Part shown: positions 3,985 to 28,966 of the stretch, one piece after another
Position numbering within the stretch: position 1 is the first letter of the stretch
Layout: every line of letters starts with the position of its first letter
Source of the DNA: an uncultured Gammaproteobacteria bacterium
GTDB taxonomy: Bacteria; Patescibacteriota; Microgenomatia; Levybacterales; GWA1-39-11
Direction of reading: 5' to 3'
DNA: 64,000 nucleotides
NCBI GenBank assembly: GCA_964651815.1
Contig: CAZYWG010000007.1
Coordinates: 5,129-69,128 of the forward strand
The notes under the pieces: model-generated
What the model saw: only the letters and a program-made list of their open reading frames with translations
Databases searched by the model: none
What the model was told of the DNA's origin: nothing
Position numbers and translations under genes: made by a program

Positions 3985-4097
3985 GGTATAAATTTATAAC
4001 ATTTAACAAAATATCTTGTCAAGACGCAACTTTTGTGTCACAAACCCTGACCGAATGCACCGTAGGGCATGAGTCGAATGGGTCAATATAGCAAAAA

Positions 4098-5882
4098 TTA
4101 TTCTCCGCTCTTTTTGTTCTTCTCATGATGTTGAGCGCTAAACATTTTTTCTATTTCGGAAAGAGAAGTAATATCTTCCGGTTTTTTATCATCACGGAAG
4201 CGTTCTAATCTTGGAAATCTTAAAGCATATCCTGCAACATCCACGTCAAAGGCCGAACCCGACTTTGATGCCTTCATCACCCTACCCGCTGTATGATTTG
4301 GAGAACGGGTAAGTTCATCTGCTTTTATCTCTACAACAACTTCTGGCTCCATCCATACGTCAGGTTCTAAATTTTTATCAACGTTATAAAGTGGGGGCTT
4401 CTGCTTTGCCGCAAGTTTTTTTCCTCGAATTGCAAGCGTTTTCCACTCTTCATCAGTAAGACCCGTTCCAACTTTTGAAACCGTTACAAATTGGTCATTT
4501 TTCTTGTCATATACTCCAATTAGAAAACCACCTATTCCAAATGCTGTCCGCTTGCCTCTTCCTAAATAATATCCCATAACAAGACAATCAACTGTATCAT
4601 CCAGCTTTGAGGAATAAGACCGTTTAAACTTTATCCAATTCCAGCCGCGGGCACCGGCCTGATAAGTACCATCAAGTTTTTTGGCTAGAATTCCTTCAAG
4701 ACCTCGTGAAACCGCATCGTCAAAGAAACTTTCAACCAGCTTCCCGTCAGAGAAAACTTGCTCGTCTGAAGGAATTATTACATCACCATCTTTTATAATT
4801 GAAAGTAAGGTCTTTCGCCTCTCAGCATATCCCTTGTTTATCATGTTATGACCTTCAACGAACAACACGTCGAACGCCATTAGTTTTAGAGGAATTTTTT
4901 CTACCATTTCTTCTATGTCATACTTTCGTCTACGTTGGGTAGTTATTTGAAAAGGCAAAAATTCGCCTGTTTCGCGAGTATAAGCAATAGCTTCTCCTTC
5001 CATTATTGTTTCTTTTGCCTTGATTTGCGTGCGGACACCTTCAACAACATCCGGATACATGAAGGTCACATCTTCAAGGTTTCTTGTGATAAGTTTTACA
5101 TCGTTACCTTTTTTATGAATTTGAAGTCTAAATCCATCAAACTTTGGCTCAACCGCGCACTCCCCAATTTTTTTAATGATTTCTTCACCGGATGAAAGTC
5201 GTTCTGCTCTTGCCATTAAAACCGGGGTAAACGGTACGGGAGTTGCTGCTGCAAGTCCCTTGATACCTTTTTCCTTAATAGTCTTTGCGATATATCCAAG
5301 GTCAGGACGAATGTTAAAGACTGGTTCGATCTGTTTTCGTAATACTTTAGTACCATCAATCATCCAGGCTAATGAATCAAGAACTGTCATATCGGAAAAT
5401 CCAAGACGCATCTTGCCAACCGGAATTCTTGTAACAAACCGAGCTGATAACGGATCGAGATTTTTCAAAAGATCCGATACTATAATCATTTTCTTTTCCA
5501 CAGAACCAGAGCCACCCGTCTCAGCCACTTTTTTTAATTCGTCAAATACTTCAGTGACAGTAATATTAGAACCCTTATGTTTTTCGCCTGCTAACTTTTC
5601 AGCAAGAACTCCAATATCTCCTATCTTTTTATATTCAGCATTGACCTCTTTATCAGAAACACCATATGCGTTCGCTACCGTTTTTAACATCTGCTTCTCT
5701 GCCATTCCAAATTCAATAGGCTCATAAAGTGGCCCTACTCTACCCTGCAGAAGGTATATCATTTTGTCTATCTCGGCGGCATCTGCCTCGCGGAATAACT
5801 CCGCAAGCAATTCAATCATCGTATTTCTCGACGCTGTATTTTCTAGTTTTTCTAAATGTCTTGCTAAATCTCTAAATTTCAT
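4098..5882 (-). CDS. lig: ATP-dependent DNA ligase (archaeal/eukaryotic-type: DNA-binding, adenylation and OB domains)
   Basis: 594 aa; adenylation motif I EPKFDGFRLQIH (KxDGxR); length fits a three-domain ligase. Confidence 0.9.
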   Translation of the reverse strand: MKFRDLARHLEKLENTASRNTMIELLAELFREADAAEIDKMIYLLQGRVGPLYEPIEFGMAEKQMLKTVANAYGVSDKEVNAEYKKIGDIGVLAEKLAGEKHKGSNITVTEVFDELKKVAETGGSGSVEKKMIIVSDLLKNLDPLSARFVTRIPVGKMRLGFSDMTVLDSLAWMIDGTKVLRKQIEPVFNIRPDLGYIAKTIKEKGIKGLAAATPVPFTPVLMARAERLSSGEEIIKKIGECAVEPKFDGFRLQIHKKGNDVKLITRNLEDVTFMYPDVVEGVRTQIKAKETIMEGEAIAYTRETGEFLPFQITTQRRRKYDIEEMVEKIPLKLMAFDVLFVEGHNMINKGYAERRKTLLSIIKDGDVIIPSDEQVFSDGKLVESFFDDAVSRGLEGILAKKLDGTYQAGARGWNWIKFKRSYSSKLDDTVDCLVMGYYLGRGKRTAFGIGGFLIGVYDKKNDQFVTVSKVGTGLTDEEWKTLAIRGKKLAAKQKPPLYNVDKNLEPDVWMEPEVVVEIKADELTRSPNHTAGRVMKASKSGSAFDVDVAGYALRFPRLERFRDDKKPEDITSLSEIEKMFSAQHHEKNKKSGE

Positions 5883-6583
5883 TTTTTTCTTTTTGAAAGG
5901 GCTTCAGTGACTTTTGCATCTACCTGATCATATATTCCTAGGTAAACATCATATGCTAGCTGTGCTCCGGCATCCTCAAATATTTTAACCCCTTCCGTAT
6001 CTTTTTGACGTTTTAATTGTACTAAACTATCAGCTAAAAGCGAAAATCCCCTAGGATCAATTGAAAATAATTGCCTCCATCTATTCCACTCTTCTGCCAT
6101 TTTTTGGACGACTAAATTCGCTTGAGCCAATTCCCTTCTGCCACCACCAGAGGATCTAACCAAATTTTCTGCTTCCCTTCTAACCTCATCTATATGGGCT
6201 GTAGCCTCAAATACACTATCATGCGTGGTCATTAATGGACTGATTTCGTTTGTAAAGCCTGTATTCATGTCTAAAGCGATCGCTCCTATTACTTTCATAT
6301 TTGGATTGTCAGAGCCTAAAGCAGATATTCCCTTTTCCTCCAAAAACATTCTCCTTGTCCGTTCAAGGTATTCAACTAAATAGTAAGAAGTAGGACGAAC
6401 AGTTGGAGTCCTATCTACAATCAGAGACAAGGCTGATCGTTCTTGTACCAAATCGTCTCGAACAATTCCTCTATAAGCCTGCGCGAATTTCTCGACATGC
6501 GGCATTAAACGCTGGAAGTCTTTCCTACTTCCATCCAATTGAATACTACCCCTAAGAGCCATTAAATCTATTTCCTGCCGCAT
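5879..6583 (-). CDS. hypothetical protein, stop/start (ATGA) coupled to the ligase
   Basis: 234 aa. Its TGA stop overlaps the ligase ATG at 5879-5882. Its RBS and ATG lie inside 37-bp repeat copy A. GC is higher than the window average. Confidence 0.5.
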   Translation of the reverse strand: MRQEIDLMALRGSIQLDGSRKDFQRLMPHVEKFAQAYRGIVRDDLVQERSALSLIVDRTPTVRPTSYYLVEYLERTRRMFLEEKGISALGSDNPNMKVIGAIALDMNTGFTNEISPLMTTHDSVFEATAHIDEVRREAENLVRSSGGGRRELAQANLVVQKMAEEWNRWRQLFSIDPRGFSLLADSLVQLKRQKDTEGVKIFEDAGAQLAYDVYLGIYDQVDAKVTEALSKRKK

Positions 6584-6617
6584 AAATTACTCCTTCGTCA
6601 TCACGTATTTTACACCC
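6581..6617. repeat. 37-bp perfect direct repeat, copy A (cataaattactccttcgtcatcacgtattttacaccc)
   Basis: Identical to 7791-7827. On the minus strand it reads GGGTGTAAAATACGTGATGACGAAGGAGTAATTTATG, i.e. Fic C-terminal codons, TAA, and AAGGAG-ATG. Confidence 0.9.
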
Positions 6618-6638
6618 ATTTAACTGAGTTTCAAATTT

Positions 6639-7676
6639 CTAAGCGACTTGCTTCGTCAGATCATCAACAATTTTGCCGAGTGTTGGAACGCTTATACTTT
6701 TAATTTCAATGTTCCTTTCACTGACCTCATATCTTCTTGGATAATTCTTAATCATATCGAGTGAATCAAGTACCTCCTCTCGAGGCGTACCTTCTTTTTT
6801 AAGCAAGTCTACCATCTGCTTCAACATTCCGCGTATCGCACTATGCCTTGCCTCCTTATCTTTCACGAGATATGAAATTCTAAACCTCTCAGGAACTACC
6901 AAATGGCTATACCCCATTACAACAGCCACATTAATCGGTTTGTGAGTTTCATAACCTACCAAATCTGATGTAGGTTGGGAAAGTACTTCCGCAATAAGCG
7001 CATTTCTTAAAACAAGCAGGTATTTAAAATACTCACTATCGTATTTTGCGCGTCGACTAAATTGCTCCGAATCTAAGGTATATTGAGGAATCGGCCCAAC
7101 CGAATTTACGTCACCCGTTACCATTTTAAAATCTTGTTCGGCTAGTTCGTGAATTTGTTCATCGGAAAGATTGCTCAAATTATTACTCTCTCCATTCTCC
7201 TTTCCTAAACCGTTTAAAAACACTGCGCCGGCTACTGCCCCTGCTCCCCCTGTCAAAAACCTTCTTCGAGTATGCGTATTTTTTAAAGCATAGAGTCCTC
7301 CACTTGCTGCAAAACCCAGTGCCGCGAGCTTTTGGACCCAAAAACTTTCATCAACATTCAACTGACCTTGATCTACGACGTTTCTATATCTTTCAGTGAA
7401 TAAATTTTGGTAGCCTTCTTCTTCTTTTTCTACAGAAGATAAAATGACTGGCACCAAGTTAACAGGGTCTGCGGCTATAAGAGGGATATTTCTATCTGAG
7501 GCAAAAAGCATTCCCCATGCAGGAAAAGCTGATTCTGACTCAAACCTTGAACGCGCCGAATAATCTTTCAATCCCTCAAGGCCAAATTGCGAATCCATTG
7601 CGAGAGCATTAATTCGTCCATACATCTTCTCGAATCTTGATATATCCTCTTCCGTCTGTGCTTTTCCAGGGAACAC
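6639..7676 (-). CDS. hypothetical protein with an internal twin-arginine-like motif
   Basis: 345 aa, GTG start. Preceded in frame by a TAG and a 38-codon ORF (7677-7793) that starts in repeat copy B. Internal RRRFLTGGAGAVAGAVFL resembles a Tat signal but lies ~135 residues in. Confidence 0.45.
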   Translation of the reverse strand: MFPGKAQTEEDISRFEKMYGRINALAMDSQFGLEGLKDYSARSRFESESAFPAWGMLFASDRNIPLIAADPVNLVPVILSSVEKEEEGYQNLFTERYRNVVDQGQLNVDESFWVQKLAALGFAASGGLYALKNTHTRRRFLTGGAGAVAGAVFLNGLGKENGESNNLSNLSDEQIHELAEQDFKMVTGDVNSVGPIPQYTLDSEQFSRRAKYDSEYFKYLLVLRNALIAEVLSQPTSDLVGYETHKPINVAVVMGYSHLVVPERFRISYLVKDKEARHSAIRGMLKQMVDLLKKEGTPREEVLDSLDMIKNYPRRYEVSERNIEIKSISVPTLGKIVDDLTKQVA

Positions 7677-7790
7677 CTAACCGCCGCCGTGATCTGTTCC
7701 AATGATTAAAACTTTTCTGTCTACCAATCCGGGTATAGGTTCCGTTGAGGGTAAGGGCAATCTTGAAAAAGCTTCCAAGCGAGCTCCTGA

Positions 7791-7827
7791 CATAAATTAC
7801 TCCTTCGTCATCACGTATTTTACACCC
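7791..7827. repeat. 37-bp perfect direct repeat, copy B
   Basis: Identical to 6581-6617. Overlaps the last 10 codons and stop of fic and provides the ATG of a 38-codon ORF. Confidence 0.9.
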
Positions 7828-8834
7828 TTTGTCACGCCTTGCTTTTTGAGTAAACCTTTTTTGACTAAATCCTGGACTTCACGCAAAACCGTGTCTTCTG
7901 AAACCATTGGAAAAAGAGAATTATAAGCCATATTTTCTATATATCCATTTGCTTGAATATATTCGATAATTTTAAGTTGCCGCTCGGACAACATGACTGG
8001 TCCCCCCAATTTTTTCTTAAGATTTGAATCAATTGAAATCTTTTCTATTCGGTCTTTTATCTTTGATAATTCGACTGCAAGACATTCAGTGAAATACGCA
8101 AGCCAGTCAGTTTGGTCACCATTTTTTCTTTCAACAGACTGCAACGCTTCGTAATATCTATCTGGATCTCGGTCAAAATGTTCTTCAATTGAAAAGAATT
8201 GACGAATATCATAACCAAGCTTGTATAAAACCAGCATTGAAAGAGCACGTCCTACGCGTCCGTTTCCATCAAGAAACGGGTGAATTCTTACAAATTCATA
8301 GTGGACTATTCCACTTTTCAAAACAGGATGAATTTCTGAGTTCTCCTGTATAAACAGTGTTAAATCTTTCATTTGCCAAGCAACTTCCACAGCCTTTGGC
8401 GGTTTGAAAGCAACGTCTCCTGTTATGGAATTGCGGATTACCACCTCTTTCTTGCGATAATTCCCGGCTTCTTCATCCGGCAAAACATTTTTTACAACAA
8501 TTTTGTGGAGATCAAGAATTGTCCCTTCGTCAATTTTTTCGTCAGTTCTTTTTTCTATATACTCGATAACTTTCCTGTAATTTATTACTTCCTGCACGTC
8601 CCTGTCCCGGGCAACAATTCGCTCTCCATCCAATACTTTCTGGACTTGGAGAAGTGACAATTCATTTCCCTCAATATGCGTTCCAAAGTGGGTTGTTCTG
8701 ACCAATGCCTCATCCTGAAATTTTTTCTCCCAATAAGGTAGGAGCGGTGCATTTTCTATGACTTCTTTGGCAGCTTCAATTGCACCGATGTTTTTTAAGA
8801 CTTTATTGTTAATGCTGAACAAGGGGTTATACAT
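7797..8834 (-). CDS. fic: Fic family protein (Fic/DOC AMPylase-like with C-terminal wHTH)
   Basis: 345 aa; canonical Fic motif HPFLDGNGRVGRAL (HPFx[DE]GNGR). Confidence 0.85.
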   Translation of the reverse strand: MYNPLFSINNKVLKNIGAIEAAKEVIENAPLLPYWEKKFQDEALVRTTHFGTHIEGNELSLLQVQKVLDGERIVARDRDVQEVINYRKVIEYIEKRTDEKIDEGTILDLHKIVVKNVLPDEEAGNYRKKEVVIRNSITGDVAFKPPKAVEVAWQMKDLTLFIQENSEIHPVLKSGIVHYEFVRIHPFLDGNGRVGRALSMLVLYKLGYDIRQFFSIEEHFDRDPDRYYEALQSVERKNGDQTDWLAYFTECLAVELSKIKDRIEKISIDSNLKKKLGGPVMLSERQLKIIEYIQANGYIENMAYNSLFPMVSEDTVLREVQDLVKKGLLKKQGVTKGVKYVMTKE

Positions 8835-8900
8835 AAGATTAATTCACAATTTTAAATTTAAAGTTTTAAATAAAAATTAGAAATTGAAAATTAAAAATTC

Positions 8901-8923
8901 ACGAACTTGATAATCAAGTTCGT
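8901..8923. promoter_or_regulatory. perfect 23-bp palindrome (ACGAACTTGATAATCAAGTTCGT), candidate operator or stem-loop
   Basis: In the divergent intergenic region between the fic start (8834, minus) and the ATG at 8943 (plus). Confidence 0.3.
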
Positions 8924-8942
8924 AATTAGTATTATATCAGCT

Positions 8943-9218
8943 ATGGCAACCGAAACTAAAAAAGAAAAAGAACAAAAATTGACTATAGAGCTGGTCCGTC
9001 AAATGTTAATGCTTGCAACCTCAGGGTTTGGACTTGTTGCAGCGCTTGCATGGAATAGTCTAATTCAAGAAGTTGTTAATAATTATATTAAAAAATGGTT
9101 ACCCGGCAGCGGCATAATTTCACTTCTTATATATGCTCTCGTTGTCACGGTTATTGCTGTATTTATCACATTTCAGCTTTCTAAAATACTGCGTCGCTTG
9201 GAAGAAAAAAGCGCATGA
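8943..9218 (+). CDS. hypothetical small membrane protein
   Basis: Start moved to the ATG (MATETKKEK...). Two predicted TM helices. Overlaps the recF start by 4 nt. Confidence 0.45.
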   Translation: MATETKKEKEQKLTIELVRQMLMLATSGFGLVAALAWNSLIQEVVNNYIKKWLPGSGIISLLIYALVVTVIAVFITFQLSKILRRLEEKSA

Positions 9219-10321
9219 TTTTAAAAAAACTAAAACTTGTAAATTTTCGGAACCACAAATCTGCCCAATTTAAATTATCTCCAACTACTGTAATTATTGG
9301 GAAAAATACTGCAGGTAAAACAAATATTCTGGAGGCAATTTACGTTTTGTCCGCCGGCCGTTCTTTCCGTGCAGAACGCGATCTTGACACAATTGCAGAA
9401 GGCTCTGATTTTGCAAGAATAGAAGCAGAGATTGAAACCGATCAAGAAAAAATAGATCTTAAAGTAATTTTTTCAACTCAAAAAGGATATTTGTCAAAGA
9501 AGTTTTTAGTGAATGGAGTCGCACGAAGGCAGCATGACTTTGCGTCAAATTTTGTTTCTGTTTTATTTACCCCCAAAGACGTTGAAATAATGACGGACTC
9601 GCCAGGGGTGCGCCGCCGCCACATTGATGCCATACTTTATCAAGCCGATAGAAATTATAGGAAAGCGCTTTCCTCGTATGAAAAAGCCTTAAGACACAGA
9701 AACAAAATGCTCCATGATCTGCGCGAAGGTAAAAAACAATACGTTACTTCTGATTTTGACTATTTCAATAATATTTTAATTGAACAAGGAGGAATTTTAA
9801 CTTCAAAACGTGAGGAATTTGTTGAATTTGTAAACAATGCAAAAAAAGATATTTTCAGGTTTGAACTTTTTTATGACAAAAGCATTATGTCTCTTGAAAG
9901 ACTATTTAAATATCATTTTGAAGAACAGGCAGCTGGCGTTACTTTGGTAGGGCCACAACGCGACGATTTTGGATTCTTTTTTCCTGCCGATGTAAGCCCT
10001 TCTATGTCATTGCGGGGAGACCGCAGCAATATTATTTCAAGACAATCTTTTTCTAAATTGATTAGTGAATTTGGTTCCCGTGGAGAGGAACGCCTTGCAA
10101 TACTCCAGCTTAAAATCCTTGAAGTAAATTATTTGCAGCAAGCGACTAATCAAATACCAATGTTGCTACTTGATGATATTTTTTCAGAACTTGACGACGC
10201 AAATATTTTTAAAGTATTCGAACTGTTGCCGAATCAGCAGACGGTTTTGACAACAACCCACCGTGAATTCGTCCCCAAAAAAATCATGAATCGAGAAGAC
10301 GTAGAGATTATTGAGCTTTAG
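9215..10321 (+). CDS. recF: DNA replication and repair protein RecF
   Basis: N-terminus MILKKLKLVNFRNHKS plus Walker A GKNTAGKTNILEAI. 368 aa, SMC-like signature region. Confidence 0.85.
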   Translation: MILKKLKLVNFRNHKSAQFKLSPTTVIIGKNTAGKTNILEAIYVLSAGRSFRAERDLDTIAEGSDFARIEAEIETDQEKIDLKVIFSTQKGYLSKKFLVNGVARRQHDFASNFVSVLFTPKDVEIMTDSPGVRRRHIDAILYQADRNYRKALSSYEKALRHRNKMLHDLREGKKQYVTSDFDYFNNILIEQGGILTSKREEFVEFVNNAKKDIFRFELFYDKSIMSLERLFKYHFEEQAAGVTLVGPQRDDFGFFFPADVSPSMSLRGDRSNIISRQSFSKLISEFGSRGEERLAILQLKILEVNYLQQATNQIPMLLLDDIFSELDDANIFKVFELLPNQQTVLTTTHREFVPKKIMNREDVEIIEL

Positions 10322-10325
10322 TATA

Positions 10326-11204
10326 TTACGCGTGTTTTACAAAGTTTTGGAAGTGGGATTTTATTTTTGACGGATCATTTTCCCTTATGATCTCATAAAC
10401 AAATTCTGCAAGCGGCAACTCTACTTTTGTTTCTTCTTTAAAATATGGTATTGATTCAACCGTTGTTATTCCTTCAACGGTTTCATTTATTTTTTTGAGA
10501 GCTTCTTCTGTTTTGTATTTTGCAAGAAGTTTCCCAAAAGAAAAGTTACGTGATTCCTCAGAATTACAAGTCAAAATCAAGTCCCCTATTGTTCCGGGGA
10601 GCGCGCGTCTGTCAATTGAATATTTTAATTTTCGCGACAAGGTATAGAATTCTTCGATCGCCAAAAGAATTAATTTGACTCGTGTATTTGTCTCAAAGCC
10701 AAGACCATCAGCTACTCCGCAAGCTATTGCATAAACATTTTTAAAGGCGGAAGCAAGCTCTAAAGCACGGATTCCTTTTGTTAGACGAACCCTGAAAAAA
10801 TCTGTCTGGAAAAGATTCTGTACAAGCTCTTTATTTTTATCTTTTGTGTAGCCGATGTTAACAAGCGTCGGCATTCCGTTTTTTACTTCTTCAGCAAAGC
10901 CGGGACCAATAAGTGAAAAATAGTCAATTCCAGTACCTAGAACTTCTGTCACTATCTGATACGGAAGCTTATTTGTTTTCTTCTCTATTCCTTTTGCACC
11001 GTTGATAACAATGGAGTTCTTAAGGTTCTTGCCATAATCTGTCACAACCTGCCGAATCGCCTGTGTTGGAATACAAATAATTATGGCTGAGTCCGCCGGA
11101 AGTTGAGTACCGCGCTTCCAATATTCAAATTCGTGCCCGTTCTTTTTAAGTAAAGATCCCATTGCGCTACCCCATTTTCCGCTCCCGAGGATAATTATCT
11201 TCAT
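10326..11204 (-). CDS. gpsA: NAD(P)H-dependent glycerol-3-phosphate dehydrogenase
   Basis: N-terminal Rossmann motif IIILGSGKWGSA; the length and C-terminal domain fit GpsA. Confidence 0.8.
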   Translation of the reverse strand: MKIIILGSGKWGSAMGSLLKKNGHEFEYWKRGTQLPADSAIIICIPTQAIRQVVTDYGKNLKNSIVINGAKGIEKKTNKLPYQIVTEVLGTGIDYFSLIGPGFAEEVKNGMPTLVNIGYTKDKNKELVQNLFQTDFFRVRLTKGIRALELASAFKNVYAIACGVADGLGFETNTRVKLILLAIEEFYTLSRKLKYSIDRRALPGTIGDLILTCNSEESRNFSFGKLLAKYKTEEALKKINETVEGITTVESIPYFKEETKVELPLAEFVYEIIRENDPSKIKSHFQNFVKHA

Positions 11205-12016
11205 AGAAGTTCTTTCATTACGAGGGGAATTTTGTTTGCCAGATCCGTGGCATTGAAATAAATCCCCATTTTCGTTTCAAGCGACTCGCCTGCTTTTTTA
11301 TTGATATATGACGCGGCGCACGCAGATAAAAATGCGTCATTTTTACAATATAAAGATGCAACAAGTCCCGCCAAAACGTCACCAGTCCCGCCTTTTGTCA
11401 TTCCAGGATTTCCGCCGGAAATTATTACCGATTTAACAGGCGATGAAACAACGTCATATTCTCCTTTTGTCAAAATTACCACGTTATATTTTTTTGCCAT
11501 ATCTTGTATACTCTCGTCTGTAGGCTTGATTCCAAAAAGTTTCTCGAATTCTATTTTATGGGGCGTGATTATTGCGTTTTTTGGAAGCATTGATGGATTT
11601 ATAACCTGAAGACTTCCTCCGTCAACAACCCATTTTTTATTAGGATACAAACCGAGTAATTTTTCGGTTAACTCTTGAGTGCTGTCGTCTCCTTTTTCTT
11701 TTCCTTCATCTCGGGTTAACCCCGGTCCTATTAATACACAATCCGCTTCATCCATATAATTTTCGATTTTCTCACGCGGTATAACGATTCCATTCCTGAA
11801 TTCCTCTTTTGCTTTTTGTACAAGCGCGTTATTCTCAGGCACTGAAGCATAAAAAACCATGTCAACAATGCGCGATGCAACGGTCAAGGGCCACAGCGAA
11901 GCGGCATGGAACAGGCGAGACCCGGCAATTATTAAAACTTTCCCGTTTTCACCTTTGTGAGAATTCTTAGCAGGTTTATAAAGTTTTTTAAGTTCTCCGT
12001 GGTCAAATTCTTGCAT
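11201..12016 (-). CDS. nnrD: ADP-dependent (S)-NAD(P)H-hydrate dehydratase (YjeF C-terminal domain type)
   Basis: GGTGDVLAG motif, carbohydrate-kinase-like fold, 271 aa. Confidence 0.8.
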   Translation of the reverse strand: MQEFDHGELKKLYKPAKNSHKGENGKVLIIAGSRLFHAASLWPLTVASRIVDMVFYASVPENNALVQKAKEEFRNGIVIPREKIENYMDEADCVLIGPGLTRDEGKEKGDDSTQELTEKLLGLYPNKKWVVDGGSLQVINPSMLPKNAIITPHKIEFEKLFGIKPTDESIQDMAKKYNVVILTKGEYDVVSSPVKSVIISGGNPGMTKGGTGDVLAGLVASLYCKNDAFLSACAASYINKKAGESLETKMGIYFNATDLANKIPLVMKELL

Positions 12017-12073
12017 AGAGGAATTATATCAGAGAGATAACATGGGTTCTAGGTGTACCAAAGTTGAGTTAGC

Positions 12074-12102
12074 TCGTGATACTCATGATACTCCTGATAG
12101 CT
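12074..12102. repeat. 9-bp tandem motif array (cgTGATACTC aTGATACTC cTGATAGC)
   Basis: Three TGATAC-core units at exact 9-bp spacing in the intergenic region upstream of nnrD. The same motif recurs at 22803-22840 and 59695-59733. Confidence 0.6.
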
Positions 12103-12109
12103 TTCGGCA

Positions 12110-12811
12110 CTAGCCTTCAATTACCGTCCCAACAAACTCGCGTCCTTCAAAATAATGTTCAAGATTTTCAAAATTATTTCCCTTAAGGATAACCACCTTT
12201 AGCCCCAATTCTTGAGCTTTTTTGGAAGCAATCGGGTCATATGGTAGATTCATTCCGGGTATCCATTCATCTCCCACAATTTTTCTAAAACCTTCCCACG
12301 TAATTTTTTTGATAGGTGCAGCATCCGGAAAGAGTTTTGGGTCTTTGTCGTATGCCATCTCAATATTACTTAAATTGACTACTGTTTTAACATTGTAATC
12401 TTCACATATCATGGTGGAACAATAATCAGTTGACCAACCGGGCTTCCATCCGGCCGCGGCTATTACGGGCTCTGTAACTTTTCTGATAATTTCATAGTGT
12501 TTTAAAACATAAGGGTGAGCAATATCACGAAATATTGTTCTTACTAAATGCGCATTGAGTTTGGTTGCATGTATTCCAAGCCAATCCTGGTCATCTTTTG
12601 TGAGCTCGTGTCCCACAACCTCACGCCCGGCGTCTCTATAATGCCTTGCAATAGATCCACCTCCTGCGACAATAAAAAACTGGCGATCTTGGTGTTTTAC
12701 TAGTTGGTCACGAATAAACTCATTAAAACGCTTAAGGAATACAATGTCAATTCCGCCGTTTGGGACTATGAGCGATCCTCCAAGTGAAATTACGATTCTT
12801 TCCTTATGCAT
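12110..12811 (-). CDS. pyrH: archaeal-type UMP kinase (amino-acid kinase family)
   Basis: 233 aa. ISLGGS and VAGGGSIARHY motifs, then a GWKPGWSTD region, are collinear with archaeal-type uridylate kinases. Confidence 0.6.
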   Translation of the reverse strand: MHKERIVISLGGSLIVPNGGIDIVFLKRFNEFIRDQLVKHQDRQFFIVAGGGSIARHYRDAGREVVGHELTKDDQDWLGIHATKLNAHLVRTIFRDIAHPYVLKHYEIIRKVTEPVIAAAGWKPGWSTDYCSTMICEDYNVKTVVNLSNIEMAYDKDPKLFPDAAPIKKITWEGFRKIVGDEWIPGMNLPYDPIASKKAQELGLKVVILKGNNFENLEHYFEGREFVGTVIEG

Positions 12812-12963
12812 TTACGCGTTCTCTCCCGGGTTTATAAGTTCGAAGGGATATTCCTTAAAATATCAGAAATTCAGGATAAATGCAAGGAATTCTGAATCAA
12901 GTTTTAATTTACCGCGCAAACACGACTTGACACAAACAAACCTTTTCAATTAAGATAGTACCT

Positions 12964-13770
12964 ATGCCGGCGCGCAAAACAAAAGGTTCTGCCACAAAAA
13001 GCAAGTCAAAAGGGTTAACTATTGGAGATATAGGTAAAAAAATCTCGGCAATCCATGCGAATCAGGTTTTATACTGTCTCTTGCTAGTTGCAGTTTTCCT
13101 AATTGGATATTTGATTGCACGCGTTCAATTCTTAGAAAAAGGATCAACCACCGCTACGGCCACCGCTCCTTCAGCACCAGGTCAACCCCAACAACCACAA
13201 GCGCCATCTGCACCTAACGCAAAAGATGTTTTGAAAAAGTTATCTCTTGGGAATTTTCCCGTGAAAGGTGAGAAAAGTGCCAAAGTCACTTTAGTTGAAT
13301 TCGCCGATTTTCGTTGCCCTTTCTGTGAACAATTTTTTACTAATGCAGAACAGCAATTAATAAAAGACTATGTTGATACGGGAAAGGTTGCAATTTATTT
13401 TAGGAATTATGCTTTCTTAGGGCCCTCGTCAATAGTTGCAGCCAACGCGGCCGAATGCGCAAATGATCAGGGAAAATTCTGGGAGTTTCACGACTGGCTT
13501 TACAAAAACCAACCACCTGAAACTGATACATCAATGTACAACACGGATAGCCTTACTACGGCTGCTGTGAATCTTGGAATGAATGGTGACGAATTCAGAA
13601 ACTGCTTATCTTCAAACAAAGATAATGCAAATGTCCAAAAAGATTTGACTGATGGTCAAGCTGTGGGTGTTAGCGGTACGCCTACTTTTTACGTTAATGG
13701 CAATCAAATTGTGGGAGCAGTGCCTTACGACAACTTCAAAACCGCAATTGACAACGAACTCAAGAAATAA
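12964..13770 (+). CDS. DsbA-family thiol:disulfide oxidoreductase, membrane-anchored
   Basis: N-terminal TM helix, Pro/Gln-rich linker, CPFC active site in a thioredoxin fold. Confidence 0.75.
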   Translation: MPARKTKGSATKSKSKGLTIGDIGKKISAIHANQVLYCLLLVAVFLIGYLIARVQFLEKGSTTATATAPSAPGQPQQPQAPSAPNAKDVLKKLSLGNFPVKGEKSAKVTLVEFADFRCPFCEQFFTNAEQQLIKDYVDTGKVAIYFRNYAFLGPSSIVAANAAECANDQGKFWEFHDWLYKNQPPETDTSMYNTDSLTTAAVNLGMNGDEFRNCLSSNKDNANVQKDLTDGQAVGVSGTPTFYVNGNQIVGAVPYDNFKTAIDNELKK

Positions 13771-14637
13771 TCATTTTTGGCACTTTGTGCAAAAGAAGGT
13801 TCCGCGGCCACCAAGATATATTTTCTCCACTACTCCACCGTCATCACGAGTGCAAGGCTTGTTTTTTCTGCCGTAAACTAAAAAGTGTTTTTGATATTCA
13901 CCAAGCTGACCTAAAACATCAACAAAATTTAGCTCTGAAGAACCTCTATATTTAAAAGCTTTTTTAAGTACTTCTAAAATACAATCGAACAATGTTTTTA
14001 TTTCTTTATCTGACAACCCTTTAGCACGACGTCGGGGGTCAATATGCGCTGCAAAACATGAGTCGTTTGAATAAATATTTCCAATTCCTCCTATTTTGGT
14101 CTGCTCCATGAGCAAAGACTTAATTGGAAGATTGGACTTCTTAACAACCTCTTTAAAGTGCTCGAGCGTAAGCGTTGGAGTTCCGGAACCGGGAGATGGA
14201 ATTGGCTCTGGACCAAGAGTCTTGAAGAATGGAAGAGTTTTAAGATCTGACGTTTTTAATATTTTCATCCATGCAAAGCCGCGCACCTCTTGGAAGTAGA
14301 AATTCGAACCATCTTTGAAATTAAGAACAACTCTTGTAAATTTATTAGGAACTTTGGCAGGAACCGGCTTCAATACTTCAAGATCCCGCATCGTATCATC
14401 ACGGAAAATAAGCTGCCCAGTAAGCTTGATATGGAAAGCGATTGAATAATCGTTTGAAAGATCAATTACAATTCCTTTAGCATACCTTCTAACATCCGTT
14501 ATTTTTGCTCCCTCAATATCCTTTGGATTTCCAGTTAATAACTTTGAATCAATAACCTCAACAGACTTAACAGTCTTCCCTACTGTATATTTTTGTAATC
14601 CGAGTTTAAGAGTCTCAACCTCTGGTAATTCAGGCAT
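13771..14637 (-). CDS. mutM: formamidopyrimidine-DNA glycosylase
   Basis: Starts MPELPEVE (catalytic Pro2 and Glu3); C-terminal zinc finger C..C..CTKCQK. Confidence 0.85.
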   Translation of the reverse strand: MPELPEVETLKLGLQKYTVGKTVKSVEVIDSKLLTGNPKDIEGAKITDVRRYAKGIVIDLSNDYSIAFHIKLTGQLIFRDDTMRDLEVLKPVPAKVPNKFTRVVLNFKDGSNFYFQEVRGFAWMKILKTSDLKTLPFFKTLGPEPIPSPGSGTPTLTLEHFKEVVKKSNLPIKSLLMEQTKIGGIGNIYSNDSCFAAHIDPRRRAKGLSDKEIKTLFDCILEVLKKAFKYRGSSELNFVDVLGQLGEYQKHFLVYGRKNKPCTRDDGGVVEKIYLGGRGTFFCTKCQK

Positions 14638-15784
14638 TGAATATTTTGTTTACAAATTCTTTTATCTTCTTGTCAAAAACTTCTGCGGAAAATTTTTGTG
14701 CTTGTTTTTTGCACGCATTCGAACTTATTTTCACTTTCTCGAATTTCTCGATTGCAGAATTTATTGCTTCGGGCGTATTTTCATCAAAAAAGATTCCAGT
14801 CTTCCCATCAATTACAGTCTCTTTAACTCCACCCGATCGAAACGCAATTACAGGTGTTCCAACACTCATTGCTTCAACCGGTGTTATTCCAAAATCTTCA
14901 TCATATGAAGCAAAAACATAAGCTTTAGCTCCCGCCATTAAATTTGCCCGCTCATCATCCGTCACTTCGCCAACAAATTCTATATTTTTATTGGCTAAAG
15001 CTTTAACTTCTTCGTCAAACCCTGCAAATCCTTTTCCGAAAATCTTCAACTTCTTCCCATTTTCATTAAACGCTTTTACAATAATATCAATTCCTTTTGC
15101 CCTTGCCAACCTACCTCCTGCAAGATAATATTTTTGATTTTTAGATCTTGAATTTTGTTTGGAATTTGGTTCTTGTTTACCCTGAGCCAATGCGAAGGGG
15201 ATCTTGAGATTTATATATACTGGTGGATTAATAACAACCGCGTCCCGCCTGTAAAATTTCTTTATTCTCGCTTTAATTTCTTCAGAATTTGCTATAAAAA
15301 AATCAACATTCTGTGAAGCTTTAAAATCAAGAAGGCGCAAAAAATGATTTGCAATATGTCCAAAAAAATTCATTAAGCGGTCTTTTTGCCACTCTCGCGC
15401 CGTCATATAACCGTATAAATATCTTGGCGGCGTGTGTGTATAACAAATTAGCTTTGTCCGCTTCCCTTTTTGGACAAGATTTGGAAAATATGCACCGGTT
15501 TGCGAAACAATAATAACATCCGCATCATTAAATACAAAACTCCAAAACGCAAAAGGCGAAAATAGCCTGAAAATAGAAATCAATTTTTCTCTATACGGAA
15601 TGGAATTTAAAAACGATGCGTGAATGTCCATTTTTTCAAAAGACTGGCGGTGAGGACCTAAATATTCCGGTGCATAAATTGAGGTATAAATTGGCGCATC
15701 GGGGAAAACTTTATGTAATTCTTCCAATACCCTCTCCGCTCCTCCGTATTCTTTAATATAATCGTGAACCAAAACAACACGCAT
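14630..15784 (-). CDS. glycosyltransferase family 4
   Basis: C-terminal EDFGITPVEAMSVGTPVIA (GT4 EX7E region), 384 aa. Confidence 0.8.
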   Translation of the reverse strand: MRVVLVHDYIKEYGGAERVLEELHKVFPDAPIYTSIYAPEYLGPHRQSFEKMDIHASFLNSIPYREKLISIFRLFSPFAFWSFVFNDADVIIVSQTGAYFPNLVQKGKRTKLICYTHTPPRYLYGYMTAREWQKDRLMNFFGHIANHFLRLLDFKASQNVDFFIANSEEIKARIKKFYRRDAVVINPPVYINLKIPFALAQGKQEPNSKQNSRSKNQKYYLAGGRLARAKGIDIIVKAFNENGKKLKIFGKGFAGFDEEVKALANKNIEFVGEVTDDERANLMAGAKAYVFASYDEDFGITPVEAMSVGTPVIAFRSGGVKETVIDGKTGIFFDENTPEAINSAIEKFEKVKISSNACKKQAQKFSAEVFDKKIKEFVNKIFNA

Positions 15785-17120: not shown

Positions 17121-18203
17121 CTATGCTGCTTTGCGTGCCACTCTGGGAGTGTGGATCAGTCCTTGACCGATACGACGGAAATACCGTAGACCCTCGCGAA
17201 TGGATGGGACAAACGACATTTCGTAGTAGGGCAGACCCAACTCTTCTACCATCGGCTTGATGAATGCGCGTGCTTGTCCGAGCCGTCTCCTTGGAACATT
17301 CCAAAGAAGATGATGCTCAACTTGGTAGTTGAGGCCGCCGGTGAGGAATGTCATTATTCCAAACCAACCTCGGAACACGTTACGCGTCGTCATCACTTGT
17401 CGCTCAAGCCAGCTCAGCTGTCTCTTTTCCTCCGTGTCGATCACGTCCATTCCCTTGTGGTTTGGTGCGAAAACCGCTCCAAGGTATAGACCCTGAAGGA
17501 TCTTATGAACTAAGATGAACGGAATCGCCCACCAGCCCATCACCAAAACCAGGAATGAGAAGTAGATCACGAAGTGAGCAGACAAGGAGATGAACTCGAG
17601 CGCATGGTAGGGACGATACTTCCTTCTCTCTTCTTTTTTGTTTGAGAGGAGGAACTCGAAGCTGTTGAAAGTCATGGCAAGGGTTTCAAGCGCAACCAGG
17701 ATGTAGTAATACCTATTCTGGTAACGGATGAGCCAGCGCCAAAACGCGGATTTTTTCAACAGCTGAACGGGAGAGAAGGCAAGGAAGGGATCAACCTTCA
17801 CGTTGGGATCCTTCTCTATATCGTTAGGGTCTCGGTGATGAGCGTTATGAGTGTACACCCACCAGCTAGGACCTATGCCGACCAGGAGACAGAGCACCAG
17901 GAGCGCGTACCGGTTGCCTTTGTGCCAGGTTGGGAAGACCTGATCATGTCCTGCATCGTGAGCGATGTAGGAAAGGTGCGTATGTAAAAACGCCATGACA
18001 GGTGCAAGCACCATCCAGACCACACGGGACTCGGTCGTACTTATTACGTACACACTGTAAACCACGGCCGCAATGAGGGCGGTGAGATACACTGCGTAGT
18101 ACAGATAGTCTGCCTTGTAGAGTCCAAGCTCGCGAGCCTTTACCTTGATGCGCCTGTTTACTTCGTCGTACCTGATGTTGTTTTCTAGAGCTACTTCTGC
18201 CAC
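17121..18203 (-). CDS. membrane fatty-acid desaturase, front-end-like histidine boxes
   Basis: Three His boxes HDAGH, HNAHH, QVEHH (third box QxxHH). Multiple TM helices. GC is clearly above the surrounding genes. Confidence 0.85.
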   Translation of the reverse strand: MAEVALENNIRYDEVNRRIKVKARELGLYKADYLYYAVYLTALIAAVVYSVYVISTTESRVVWMVLAPVMAFLHTHLSYIAHDAGHDQVFPTWHKGNRYALLVLCLLVGIGPSWWVYTHNAHHRDPNDIEKDPNVKVDPFLAFSPVQLLKKSAFWRWLIRYQNRYYYILVALETLAMTFNSFEFLLSNKKEERRKYRPYHALEFISLSAHFVIYFSFLVLVMGWWAIPFILVHKILQGLYLGAVFAPNHKGMDVIDTEEKRQLSWLERQVMTTRNVFRGWFGIMTFLTGGLNYQVEHHLLWNVPRRRLGQARAFIKPMVEELGLPYYEMSFVPSIREGLRYFRRIGQGLIHTPRVARKAA

Positions 18204-18566: not shown

Positions 18567-20786
18567 TTAGCTTTGAGGTTTTCTTCCGTAGCGCTCTTTT
18601 GAGTGGCGTATTATAGAATCGCGGTTATCATTTTTAACATTTGGTAATGGAAGAGTCGTTGCAGGGAAAGGTGCTGATGTCATTCCGTCAATAGAAAGCT
18701 TAATTACAGTTTCAAATTTACCAAGCGAAACAAGATCATTCTCCGTATAAATCTCGGCAAATTCTTTAGTCAAATTATACGCGTCGTGTGCACCCACCAC
18801 AAATGAAATCAAACTTCCCACATTACCGTAAATCGCGTGTTGGATTTGCTCCTCCAGTTGATCCGAATATTGATTGGCTAAAGTTAAAGACAAACGGTAC
18901 TTTCTGGCTTCTGAAAGAATTTTAATAAATGATTCTGTTGCAAAATTCTGAAACTCATCAACGTATAAGAAAAAATCGCGCCTGCTTTCTTCTTTTTGGA
19001 ATGAGCGGTTCATAGCTGCCAGCTGAATTTGAGTTATAACCATTGCTCCAAGTAATGCTGAATTGTCTTCACCAAGTTTTCCTTGAGACAAGTTCAGAAT
19101 TAATATTTTCCCTTCATCCATTATTTCCTGTAAATTAATTGATGAGGTGGGGTTACTTATGATGTTTCTAATCATACGAGATGAAACAAATTGTCCTACC
19201 TTATTTTGAATTGGTGAAACAGCTTCAGATTTTAATTTATCTGGCATCCTGGCAAATTCCGCTTCCCAGAAATTCTTGAGAACCGGATCAGAAAGCCTTG
19301 CGACAATTCTTGCACGATACGCATCATCAGAAAGAATTCTAAGCGCGTCCATTAAAGTCCCACCTTCAACGTCAAGAAGCGTCAAGATAACGTTGCGCAA
19401 GATATATTCAAGCCGAGGCCCCCAACTTTCTCCATAAATTTTGTGGAAAATAGAGACGATTCCCGATGAAACCAAGTCCTTATGTTGCAGATTATGAACC
19501 TCCAGAACATTTAGCGAAAATGGTCTCTCCACGTCAAACGGCTCAAGATAAACAACGTCATTAATACGTCTTTTAGGGATGTAATCCATTATAATTTCCG
19601 ACAAATCCCCATGGGGATCAATTATTCCTATTCCGCGGTCCTTTCTGATATCATCAATCGCCATATTGGCAATAAGGGTTGATTTTCCGGCACCCGTTTT
19701 CCCAATAACATAAACGTGTTTGCGCCTATCTGGCGTTTTTATTCCAAAAATTGTGTCAGTATTTTTAAATTCCGTTTTCGCAAAAAAATTAACGTCTTTT
19801 TTCTCCTCTTCCGTTATGGAAGTGATTACTGGAAGATTTTCAGGCGGCTCCCCCAAAAGAGTTTTCCCCCATGCAATATTTTTGAGTCCTGCAAGGAGAA
19901 ATCCTGTTGGGTGCCAAATTGTTGCAAGCTCTTGGGCATTCAAAACCTGATTTTTGCGCTCAAGATAATTAATAGTACGCTCTCTTATACGCTTTATAAG
20001 TTTTTTTCGGTTCGCCTCAAAAAGAGGCTTTCTAAAAACAAACTGGTTCCCCTCTCCTAAAGAAAAGCTTCCAAAAGTTCCGGCCAAATTACTCATATAA
20101 GGCGCGGTATTTGCCTGTTCTGATCCGACAACCAAACGAATTACTGCTTTGCCTCCCTGAAATCCTGCTTTCTGCATCATCCTAAGTTTTTGAGGATTTT
20201 GTGCGTATTTAACTGTTGAACCCATAGAAGTTTCGCCAGTCATTGCATCCTTCATTGCAGCGGCATGCGGATCTTCAATCATATGCCCGGCCATTTCAAC
20301 TGCTTTTGCTTGCCAAGCAAAACTTGCCGGTTTTATAACAATTTGAACTGCCATTTTGACAGTTGAATCTTGTTTTGCGAGAAATCCCAAGAGAGAAGAC
20401 AAAGGATCAACGTCTTCAAGGTCTGCATAGGTCTTGATTGGAAGATACGGATAGGAATTCAAAACCATCTCGCCAACTGCAATATATCTTGATTTTAAAA
20501 CCTCGAGCATTGGATCCGGTGTTTTTGTGATATTTGACTTAGGAAAAGATGACCCAACAAGACTTGCAACAAGAGTTTCATTTTCTGCTCTTGTTGTTGC
20601 GTATAAATAAACTGTTTGATTGAGTAAATAAATTTCAAACGCGTGAGATTTTGGATGTATCCAAGACCTTTTCCAAAGAGGAATGTAAGGAAACGGAAGA
20701 AGGGACGAAAATATTTGAGTTGCCGCCTCAATAGGCGTTTCATCATCTTTTGGATTGCGAACTAGAAGGTGCACAAATTCGGACAT
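18567..20786 (-). CDS. TraD/VirD4/TrwB-like (DUF87-type) P-loop ATPase without TM segments
   Basis: Walker A VIGKTGAGKST, IIDPHGD, Walker-B-like YVDEFQNF. 739 aa with a soluble N-terminal domain. Confidence 0.5.
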   Translation of the reverse strand: MSEFVHLLVRNPKDDETPIEAATQIFSSLLPFPYIPLWKRSWIHPKSHAFEIYLLNQTVYLYATTRAENETLVASLVGSSFPKSNITKTPDPMLEVLKSRYIAVGEMVLNSYPYLPIKTYADLEDVDPLSSLLGFLAKQDSTVKMAVQIVIKPASFAWQAKAVEMAGHMIEDPHAAAMKDAMTGETSMGSTVKYAQNPQKLRMMQKAGFQGGKAVIRLVVGSEQANTAPYMSNLAGTFGSFSLGEGNQFVFRKPLFEANRKKLIKRIRERTINYLERKNQVLNAQELATIWHPTGFLLAGLKNIAWGKTLLGEPPENLPVITSITEEEKKDVNFFAKTEFKNTDTIFGIKTPDRRKHVYVIGKTGAGKSTLIANMAIDDIRKDRGIGIIDPHGDLSEIIMDYIPKRRINDVVYLEPFDVERPFSLNVLEVHNLQHKDLVSSGIVSIFHKIYGESWGPRLEYILRNVILTLLDVEGGTLMDALRILSDDAYRARIVARLSDPVLKNFWEAEFARMPDKLKSEAVSPIQNKVGQFVSSRMIRNIISNPTSSINLQEIMDEGKILILNLSQGKLGEDNSALLGAMVITQIQLAAMNRSFQKEESRRDFFLYVDEFQNFATESFIKILSEARKYRLSLTLANQYSDQLEEQIQHAIYGNVGSLISFVVGAHDAYNLTKEFAEIYTENDLVSLGKFETVIKLSIDGMTSAPFPATTLPLPNVKNDNRDSIIRHSKERYGRKPQS

Positions 20787-27779: not shown

Positions 27780-27851
27780 GCCAGGGTAGCTCAGTGGTAG
27801 AGCACAAGATTCATATCCTTGCGGTCGTGGGTTCAAACCCCACCCCTGGTA
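27780..27851 (+). tRNA. tRNA-Met (anticodon CAT), elongator-like
   Basis: Hand-folded cloverleaf with 7-bp acceptor, GCTC/GAGC D stem, anticodon loop ttCATat, T stem GTGGG/CCCAC. No encoded CCA. Confidence 0.75.
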
Positions 27852-27868
27852 CTTAACCACTTTTATTT

Positions 27869-27944
27869 GTACCCGTAGTTCAATGGATAGAACACCTGGT
27901 TGCGGTCCAGGCGGTTGGAGGTCCGATTCCTCTCGGGTACGCCA
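27869..27944 (+). tRNA. tRNA-Arg (anticodon GCG)
   Basis: Acceptor GTACCCG/CGGGTAC, anticodon stem CCTGG/CCAGG with loop ttGCGgt, encoded CCA. The T loop (TCCGATT) is atypical. Confidence 0.65.
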
Positions 27945-27949
27945 AGGAG

Positions 27950-28110
27950 TGGCCACTTGAAGTGGACACGACGCAGGCACTGGGAGCCCTGAAAGGGCGA
28001 GGCAGTGCAACGAGTTATTCTCGGTCGAACAGCGCAAAAGCAGAAAAGTTTAACTGTTAAATTTGTAGCCTGGAAATGAAATTTCCAGTGCATTGAAAAA
28101 TAAGTAAGAA
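27950..28110 (+). ncRNA. unassigned structured RNA candidate inside the tRNA cluster
   Basis: ORF-free, GC-enriched. Nested hairpins: GCACTG-GGAGCCC-TGAAA-GGGC-GAGGCAGTGC with a GNRA tetraloop, CGAG-ttatt-CTCG, and a perfect CTGGAAAT-gaa-ATTTCCAG. The strand is only assumed to match the flanking tRNAs. Confidence 0.2.
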
Positions 28111-28130
28111 GATTTTCTTTGTTTTTCAAT

Positions 28131-28215
28131 GGAGGATTCGCATAGTGGCCAATTGCACGAGTTTCGAAAACTCGAGGGAGCAATCCCTACACAGGTTCAA
28201 ATCCTGTATCCTCCG
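28131..28215 (+). tRNA. tRNA-Ser (anticodon CGA), type II
   Basis: Acceptor GGAGGAT/ATCCTCC, anticodon stem CGAGT/ACTCG with loop ttCGAaa, long variable arm, T arm ACAGG-TTCAAAT-CCTGT. Confidence 0.8.
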
Positions 28216-28217
28216 CT

Positions 28218-28289
28218 GCTCCCGTAGTTCAATGGATAGAATGAGGGATTCCGGATCCTTTGATGCGGGTTCGATTCCCACCGGGAGCG
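28218..28289 (+). tRNA. tRNA-Arg (anticodon CCG)
   Basis: Acceptor GCTCCCG/CGGGAGC, anticodon loop ttCCGga, T loop TTCGATT. Confidence 0.75.
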
Positions 28290-28292
28290 CAA

Positions 28293-28313
28293 GGTTTGTC
28301 TGAAAGACAAACC
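28293..28313 (+). terminator. 8-bp hairpin after the tRNA cluster (GGTTTGTC-tgaaa-GACAAACC)
   Basis: Perfect stem immediately 3' of tRNA-Arg(CCG); the downstream U-run is weak. Confidence 0.35.
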
Positions 28314-28372
28314 GCAGTACTGAAAAGTTTGTTTTACAAATCTTTTTAGTACAAAAAGTAAGAATATATTAT

Positions 28373-28807: not shown

Positions 28808-28879
28808 TTCTTAATTTATAATTCACATATCTCCGAAGCGATTTGGGGCTCCCAAAAAACAAGTTTTTGGGGAAAGCAT

Positions 28880-28964: not shown

Positions 28965-28966
28965 CA

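Follow-up and report, generated by a model that had tools for sequence, protein, structure and literature searches.

How does a streamlined genome gain a gene inside a tightly packed gene array while neither neighbour is harmed? This question is raised by a locus in a 64-kb stretch of DNA, hereafter called the window, from the chromosome of an uncultivated member of the Levybacteria (Patescibacteria or candidate phyla radiation, CPR). Here fic, two open reading frames (ORF-A and ORF-B) and an ATP-dependent DNA ligase gene lie closely packed in a single array on the minus strand. A segment of 1173 nt with ORF-A is bracketed by two identical copies of a 37-nt direct repeat, R, located at positions 6581-6617 and 7791-7827. 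Comparison with related genomes supports an insertion of this segment into the fic/ORF-B junction and revealed that R is a target duplication of host origin, made in situ. As for the event itself, we favour with moderate confidence that the 1173-nt segment was inserted recently and only once, through illegitimate joining or a template switch, and that 37 bp of the target were duplicated in the process. The locus is a rare, cleanly resolved snapshot of gene gain in a CPR genome, with the filled, the empty and an even emptier site all at hand and with perfect scars.

Structure of the repeat

The two copies of R (CATAAATTACTCCTTCGTCATCACGTATTTTACACCC) match at 37/37 positions, and allowing for one mismatch their identity reaches 40 nt, to positions 6620 and 7830. 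Within the window, two matches to R were found at up to three mismatches while 0.00 were expected from 100 shuffles. No other direct repeat of at least 22 nt with such identity occurs in the 64 kb. On the minus strand, R begins with G, the last base of a Lys codon, followed by the nine fic codons GGT, GTA, AAA, TAC, GTG, ATG, ACG, AAG and GAG (GVKYVMTKE), the fic stop codon TAA, the 3-nt spacer TTT and the start codon ATG. An AAGGAG sequence lies 6 nt 5' of this ATG. A preliminary description of this DNA had already reported the identical repeats, which were also reproduced by the k=31 unitigs described below. It had listed the last ten codons of fic as their content. The stop codon, the spacer, the ATG and the AAGGAG were correctly named there, but only nine codons are complete and the tenth contributes its last base. 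Its statement that each copy starts a different gene was borne out: the ATG of the upstream copy (R1) opens a 38-codon ORF and remains in frame past a TAG codon into a 345-aa ORF, and the ATG of the downstream copy (R2) opens the 234-aa ORF-B.

Judging from these signals, R1 would let ribosomes start on ORF-A, with translation expected to halt at the TAG in codon 39, and R2 would keep the start signals of ORF-B. Neither dyad symmetry nor a hairpin was detected inside R. The 70-nt stretches round both copies folded no better than shuffled sequences on either strand (z -0.12 to 0.26).

An empty site and the origin of the repeat

The preliminary description regarded positions 6618-7790 as an insertion and suggested searching for a fic-ORF-B-ligase arrangement without them. 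Such an arrangement was found in four related loci (L005, L006, L007 and L091). They show the order recF, DUF5654, fic, ORF-B and ligase, are about 74% identical to the window at the nucleotide level, carry a single junction and lack ORF-A. In this type of junction, ORF-B starts 3 nt after fic (...GGGTGTAAAATACGTGATGACaAAaGAGTAAcTTATGCGGCAGG...). When the window was compared with L005 by blastn, positions 6625-7790 were unmatched and 45 nt of L005 (3194-3238) aligned to both repeat regions. The interpretation of the segment as an insertion is thus backed by an empty site. A still simpler arrangement is present in the closest Fic relatives (88-89% identity; L009, L092-L095), in which the fic TAA abuts the ligase ATG and a slot gene is absent. 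A search of metagenome contigs with exact and degenerate versions of R, for an empty site or a circle of the same species, yielded only one further contig, of the L005 type.

The L005 junction differs from that of the window at 3 of 37 positions, and the substitutions are common to both copies of R. Moreover, TTT-ATG is present only at the fic/ORF-B junction, whereas relatives with directly adjoining fic and ligase genes read TAA-ATG. Since both copies share the substitutions of the lineage and the resident TTT-ATG, R1 is a copy of the lineage's own fic/ORF-B junction, duplicated in situ, and not an attachment (att) site carried by an element. R is therefore a target duplication that originates from the host. 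The age of the event can be narrowed down as well. The fic-tail part of R2 is non-coding and yet the two copies in the window are identical at 37/37 positions, although the window and L005 lineages are about 26% apart, so that the insertion must be much younger than the species split. ORF-A and ORF-B are unrelated (BLASTP E = 32), which rules them out as diverged paralogues and agrees with the earlier judgement that a simple tandem duplication is unlikely.

Independent assemblies of the locus

Exact-protein look-ups in Logan unitigs (k=31; runs SRR9179562 and SRR9179560) gave sequences that match the window without differences and are interrupted precisely at R. The fic unitig (L001) corresponds to positions 7798-14834, the ORF-A unitig (L004) to 6588-7820 and the ORF-B/ligase unitig (L002) to 5116-6610. 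L004 was seen in three samples, and it starts and finishes in 30 nt of R; genuine 31-mers connect R with both ends of ORF-A. In the k=31 graph, fic leads in, ORF-B leads out and ORF-A forms a loop on R, a topology that is compatible with co-existing empty-site or circular forms.

The interrupted gene ORF-A

The 38 residues preceding the TAG of ORF-A align to the N-termini of its relatives, and the family-invariant residues H35, G36 and F41 lie on both sides of the TAG at codon 39. For this reason, ORF-A is a single interrupted gene with a full length of about 384 codons and a premature stop. The same TAG occurs in unitig L004 from the three samples. Reassignment of TAG was considered and dismissed because this codon closes 13 of the 54 genes of the window and is thus an ordinary stop. 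Owing to the premature TAG, ORF-A is probably a pseudogene or a split gene in decay. A GTG directly after the TAG might allow re-initiation and would then give an N-terminally truncated product without the invariant residues H35 and G36.

In a word-indexed search of 5.8 billion proteins ORF-A matched only itself, and a HMMER scan of 1.84 billion representatives detected 25 distant relatives of 360-460 aa with approximately 30% identity. One of these, in a Saccharimonadales genome, is flanked by genes for adenosine deaminase and purA/guaA, an ordinary chromosomal context away from fic. Pfam, NCBIfam, PADLOC and PHROG gave no assignment for ORF-A, apart from an internal SRRxFL motif resembling a twin-arginine (Tat) signal. 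The AlphaFold2 model of the protein is confident (predicted local distance difference test, pLDDT, 79), and a Foldseek search of the PDB with this model returned no match. A second copy of the ORF-A segment was not found in viral, metagenome, phage and plasmid collections at the nucleotide or near-identity level, nor were R or ORF-A detected in viral contigs, phages, plasmids or PHROGs.

An RRxF sequence followed by a hydrophobic stretch is invariant in the 20/20 aligned members of the ORF-A family (residues ~172-195; region 7260-7290 of the window, minus strand). It scores as a Tat signal, with the Pfam model TAT_signal matching in 11/20 members and with PDB matches confined to the Tat signals of FdhA, NapA and a hydrogenase. 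The internal position of such a signal, in the middle of the protein, is unusual.

The composition of the segment is close to that of its surroundings. A GC content visibly higher than in neighbouring genes, as claimed in the preliminary description, was not substantiated: the insert has a GC content of 0.414, compared to gene means of 0.384 +/- 0.034 in the window. The GC content at third codon positions (GC3) is 0.344 for ORF-A (gene means 0.312 +/- 0.055) and its codon-choice z-score is -0.9. As ORF-A deviates by less than one standard deviation from the host genes, a foreign origin deduced from GC content or codon usage was rejected. Had the 21-nt tail between the ORF-A stop codon and R2 been left over from the 5' end of a ligase gene, slot alleles would have had to recombine by unequal crossing-over. 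This idea was rejected after the tail had been aligned locally to 76 ligase starts; shuffled tails reached or exceeded the mean score in 11% and the maximum score in 57% of the cases. Together, the tail and R2 give a sigma-70-like match, TTGAAA-N16-TAAAAT, and promoter-like matches were not enriched over shuffled sequences.

A variable slot between fic and the ligase gene

The region between fic and the ligase gene was surveyed in 80 Levybacteria loci, with one genome per species, and the gap between the two genes was determined for 76 non-redundant loci. The ligase gene follows fic in about 76 of the 80 species loci. Gap lengths range from -4 to 2183 nt, with 16 gaps of at most 25 nt, ten of 26-150 nt and 50 that contain one to three genes. 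At least 16 families without BLASTP links to each other occupy the slot, among them methyltransferases, a 23S-IVP-like four-helix protein and many orphans. The fic-ligase junction is thus a newly recognised, phylum-wide variable gene slot, which accords with the cassette exchange considered in the preliminary description: in 76 species it holds nothing or one to three genes of unrelated families. ORF-A was absent from all 80 related loci.

In four loci (L012, L015, L019 and L020), fic is 83-86% identical to that of the window and the ligase gene 47-49%, the level of distant Levybacteria. These mosaic identities point to recombination breakpoints at the slot. No direct repeat of at least 12 nt involving the fic tail was detected in the other occupied slots, and about 1 Mb of Levybacteria loci contained no other repeat-flanked single-gene insertion. 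For an uncultivated phylum, the slot marks a precise location at which gene flux, and perhaps modulators of Fic, can be sought.

The commonest family in the slot is fast-evolving, has about 170-190 aa (range ~140-230) and occurs in 30 loci among L014-L081. In its alignment (A2, 27 members) the mean column identity is 18%, and no match was obtained in Pfam, PADLOC or PHROG. Two tandem copies are present in L029, and in L070 a member is fused to a response-regulator-like C-terminal half. ORF-B was tested as a distant member of this family and rejected (hhalign probability 0.1%).

Repeats of other kinds were noticed near the slot. At the 3' end of the ligase gene in L025 (9158-9339), the last ~80 nt with the stop codon and ~10 nt beyond it are present in two copies with a 24-nt filler between them. 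In L039 (9293-9680) there are at least three tandem copies with a period of 107 nt and a 100-N scaffold gap inside. Both cases indicate that duplication with filler occurs near the fic-ligase operon without mobile elements, which speaks for the explanation of the insertion favoured below. L060 carries GC-rich palindromic repeats (6289-6320 and 7977-8008, 4034-4084 and 4868-4918; e.g. AAAGTTTCCGCCAGAGGCGGATCCGCCTCTGG) which look like repetitive extragenic palindromes or miniature inverted-repeat transposable elements. They lie inside the regions matched by fic and ligase, with two further occurrences upstream. Since the fic match of this locus is about 50 nt longer than the others, they may be inserted in frame.

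Possible course of the insertion

According to the explanation that we favour, a 1173-nt segment with ORF-A would have entered the fic/ORF-B junction of a Levybacteria chromosome once and recently, and the target, consisting of the last nine fic codons, TAA, TTT and ATG, would have been duplicated on this occasion. As a result, fic would keep its true end, ORF-A would gain a copied ribosome-binding site (RBS) and start codon, and ORF-B would retain its own copy. Two illegitimate joints, 37 bp apart and in overlapping register, would suffice for this outcome, and a dedicated recombinase would not be needed. The duplication may have arisen by a staggered break with subsequent fill-in. Alternatively, a replicative template switch to the donor and back to a position 37 nt upstream may have occurred, guided by microhomology only; a possible AAA at the right joint and the ATG at the left one are all that is visible. 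Selection would retain a product in which fic is intact and both ORF-A and ORF-B have an RBS and an ATG. The slot, for its part, would tolerate and express promoterless genes through their tight coupling to fic. Both this molecular route and selection as the reason why the start signals were kept are inferred. The locus illustrates that a duplicated tail of an upstream gene together with RBS and ATG can hand ready-made translation signals to a newcomer with no damage to either neighbour. As an event it neatly exemplifies a known type, and it reveals no new mobile element or recombination system.

Several points weigh against this explanation. The 37-bp target duplication exceeds the usual length for illegitimate insertions. 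The left joint lies exactly at the start codon and the insert is gene-precise, beginning with codon 2 and extending 21 nt beyond the stop codon, which looks 'designed'; such boundaries call for selection or microhomology at RBS and ATG as an explanation. Because of the tidy boundaries and the long duplication, a site-specific or cassette mechanism retains a low probability. The host-like composition of ORF-A fits a very recent foreign origin poorly, unless the donor was a similar CPR bacterium or the same genome. It must also be considered that a mechanism cannot be generalised from a single instance, and that the k=31 unitigs leave room for empty-site or circular forms existing side by side with the occupied site.

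Alternative explanations

The preliminary description had proposed site-specific integration at the 3' end of fic. This proposal found no support: the insert has no integrase and no terminal inverted repeats, R forms no hairpin, the fic tail is not repeated at other loci, R is a copy of the target, and the argument from GC content fails. Neither an integrase nor a transposase was found in the insert or in the 50 occupied slots of the relatives, no transposase or Cas1 is encoded within the 64 kb, and the inverted repeats detected in 4000-11000 do not link one end of the insert to the other. The only tyrosine recombinase of the window (29606-30472, minus strand, 288 aa) is Xer-like and located 22 kb from the insert. 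Its XerC/XerD/XerA-like scores of 153-160 bits are below the NCBIfam equivalog cut-offs, and it likewise stays under the IntI cut-off. It is conceivable that this protein, or a recombinase from an unseen element, acted in trans on a small non-autonomous cassette with R as att core, comparable to cis-mobilizable elements (CIMEs) or integrative and mobilizable elements (IMEs). Identical direct repeats on both sides of an insert, with the 3' end of a conserved gene restored, are the classic picture of attL and attR, the site is a phylum-wide hotspot for differing genes, and the ORF-A unitig that loops on R at k=31 would fit an excisable circle. We nevertheless regard this course as unlikely. Besides the missing integrases, R has neither dyad symmetry nor a hairpin, none of the occupied slots has a repeated fic tail, and a second copy of the cassette did not turn up in the viral, metagenome, phage and plasmid collections. 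Above all, attP would need to mimic a junction that is unique to this lineage, with TTT-ATG and lineage-specific bases. Recombination by homology meets a similar difficulty. A circle of R and ORF-A could have entered through one RecA-dependent crossover within the 37 bp (Campbell type), or alleles of the form fic-R-ORF-A and fic-R-ORF-B could have undergone unequal crossing-over. The perfect identity of the repeats, the loop topology and the allelic swapping and mosaicism at the slot would agree with this, and homology-facilitated illegitimate recombination is documented in bacteria (PMC3240628). All of these models, though, presuppose a molecule that already joined ORF-A to the TAA-TTT-ATG junction of this lineage, and the problem is only moved back. 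Neither a fic-R-ORF-A allele nor an intact ORF-A was found among the 5.8 billion proteins. In addition, 37 bp is close to the lower length limit for RecA-dependent exchange. An origin by homology is accordingly judged improbable as well.

Two further scenarios carry very little weight. If fic-R-ORF-A-R-ORF-B were the ancestral order, relatives might have lost ORF-A between the repeats, and gene conversion would keep the copies identical. Deletion between direct repeats would indeed yield exactly the observed empty site. Between the window and L005, however, about 26% of the nucleotides and 3 of 37 positions in R differ, and yet the two copies in the window agree at 37/37, including the non-coding relic, which makes this scenario hardly credible. 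ORF-A is also missing from all 80 related loci, and the closest fic relatives are devoid even of ORF-B. An assembly or population artefact, in which the chromosome would read fic-R-ORF-B and the contig would wrongly include ORF-A-R from another strain or from a separate molecule, circular or tandem, cannot be separated from the other cases by the k=31 graph with its ORF-A loop. We consider it highly improbable, since R with its 37 nt is below the usual read length and final assembler k, so that the deposited 72-kb contig would have needed spanning k-mers or reads. Furthermore, R is joined to either end of ORF-A by genuine 31-mers, the identical loop unitig occurs in three samples, and a circle of 1.2 kb would hardly be maintained if it lacked a replication gene. 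There is, finally, a slight chance that the end of fic with its embedded RBS and ATG is the capture site of an undescribed gene-capture process of CPR bacteria. If this were true, promoterless genes would enter one by one after fic and duplicate a 'translation-start module' of about 37 bp, for instance by means of an integrase with widely staggered cuts. The variable slot would then be explained, and the window would have caught the only fresh event, with the duplicate not yet decayed.

Comparison with known systems

Integrative elements with attL and attR at gene 3' ends, such as prophages, integrative and conjugative elements (ICEs), IMEs and CIMEs, resemble the locus in that identical direct repeats bracket the insert and the upstream copy completes the target gene, leaving its product unchanged. 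The fic-ligase site is likewise a recurrent place of variation. What separates the locus from these elements is the lack of an integrase in the insert and in the related occupied slots, and a repeat that is without dyad symmetry and includes the start codon of the downstream gene plus a spacer specific to the resident junction. Moreover, the insert is a single promoterless gene that was found nowhere else. Transposable elements and casposons are also flanked by a duplicated target, as produced by staggered cleavage and fill-in. The target duplications of insertion sequences, transposons and casposons typically comprise 2-15 bp. By contrast, 37 bp are duplicated here, and there is only one copy, with neither terminal inverted repeats nor a transposase. 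Integron cassettes share with ORF-A that a promoterless single-gene unit directly follows a fixed gene and uses upstream expression signals, with contents that differ between genomes. In the fic-ligase slot, however, there is no attC hairpin and no IntI or attI, the upstream gene being fic. Neighbouring cassettes in multi-gene slots have no repeat in common, and the duplication consists of 37 bp of host coding sequence.

Closest to the favoured mechanism are illegitimate, microhomology-mediated insertions, including homology-facilitated illegitimate recombination (PMC3240628), and template-switch 'duplication-insertion'. In these events non-homologous DNA is acquired once and without signatures of an element, and target bases may be duplicated or lost at the joints. 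By comparison, the ORF-A insertion is unusually tidy in its gene-precise boundaries and 37-bp duplication. As to the slot as a whole, flexible genomic islets are similar, because fic and the ligase gene are syntenic in nearly all sampled Levybacteria, the contents in between are unrelated and the mosaic histories point to recombination in the flanks. The slot differs from them by its tiny size (0-2.2 kb, 0-3 genes) and by its overlapping or abutting starts and stops.

In Escherichia coli, an antitoxin of 47 aa (AS1) is encoded just downstream of SoFic (PMC12249575). Experiments in organisms other than Levybacteria are the source of what is known on phage resistance or toxicity of SoFic, an anti-phage defence protein, and on its neutralisation by a downstream antitoxin (PMC12249575). 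The Levybacteria have a SoFic-like Fic with a small gene immediately downstream as well, and it could be speculated by analogy that slot genes are perhaps modulators of Fic. Unlike AS1, though, the genes downstream of fic in Levybacteria are larger and mutually unrelated, and a third of the species do without one. Furthermore, fic is a conserved, syntenic, core-like gene in this group and not a patchy defence gene.

Flanking genes and other features of the window

The features of the locus are compiled in Table 1. The fic product matched the Pfam family Fic (1.1e-18), and its motif fits HxFx(D/E)GNGRxxR. It also matched the SoFic model of PADLOC (1e-53) over nearly its full length, whereas it reached only 71 bits with the SoFic equivalog of NCBIfam, for which the cut-off is 550. 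Judged by the PADLOC model, this Fic protein resembles SoFic. For ORF-B, one relative with 88% identity is known. ORF-B had no match in Pfam, NCBIfam, PADLOC and PHROG, and no fold could be assigned, the structure model being too poor (pLDDT 41).

Table 1. Coordinates and properties of the features at the fic-ligase locus.
Feature	Position in window	Strand	Properties
Upstream syntenic neighbours	8907..10321	+	DUF5654 protein 8907-9218, recF 9215-10321
fic	7797..8834	-	345-aa Fic-domain protein; motif HPFLDGNGRVGR; SoFic-like architecture; 60-89% identity across Levybacteria
R1, upstream copy	7791..7827	-	true fic 3' end (9 codons + 1 nt), TAA, TTT, ATG of ORF-A; contains AAGGAG Shine-Dalgarno sequence
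Inserted segment	6618..7790	-	1173 nt; ORF-A codon 2 to stop plus 21-nt tail; absent in related genomes
ORF-A	6639..7793	-	384 codons + stop; uncharacterised family of ~360-460 aa; in-frame TAG at codon 39
In-frame TAG of ORF-A	7677..7679	-	premature stop; GTG directly after
21-nt tail	6618..6638	-	from ORF-A stop to R2; AAATTTGAAACTCAGTTAAAT
R2, downstream copy	6581..6617	-	non-coding relic of fic tail, TAA, TTT, ATG of ORF-B
ORF-B	5879..6583	-	234 aa, predicted all-helical; resident slot gene; overlaps ligase start (ATGA)
ATP-dependent DNA ligase	4098..5882	-	Lig1/dnl1 type; conserved downstream anchor of the variable slot

Apart from the genes discussed above, the window contains housekeeping genes. 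The gene of the Xer-like tyrosine recombinase adjoins five tRNA genes (27780-28965). A 360-aa fatty-acid desaturase (Pfam FA_desaturase, 4.8e-30) is encoded at 17121-18203 on the minus strand, next to a VirD4/TraG-like ATPase gene (18567-20786). With a GC content of 0.51 and a GC3 of 0.62, compared to 0.38 and 0.31 for the window, and with a codon-choice z-score of -5.35, the desaturase gene is by far the most foreign-looking of the window. Within 32476-32731 (minus strand), a group I intron was identified at 32514-32710 (Rfam RF00028, 81.9 bits, E = 2.8e-19). The flanks of this intron read as a split tRNA with the anticodon CAT, the acceptor stem GCGGGG/CTCCGC and the anticodon loop CT|CATAA. 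The tRNA(CAU) gene, which was not reported by ARAGORN, is thus broken by the intron between positions 33 and 34.

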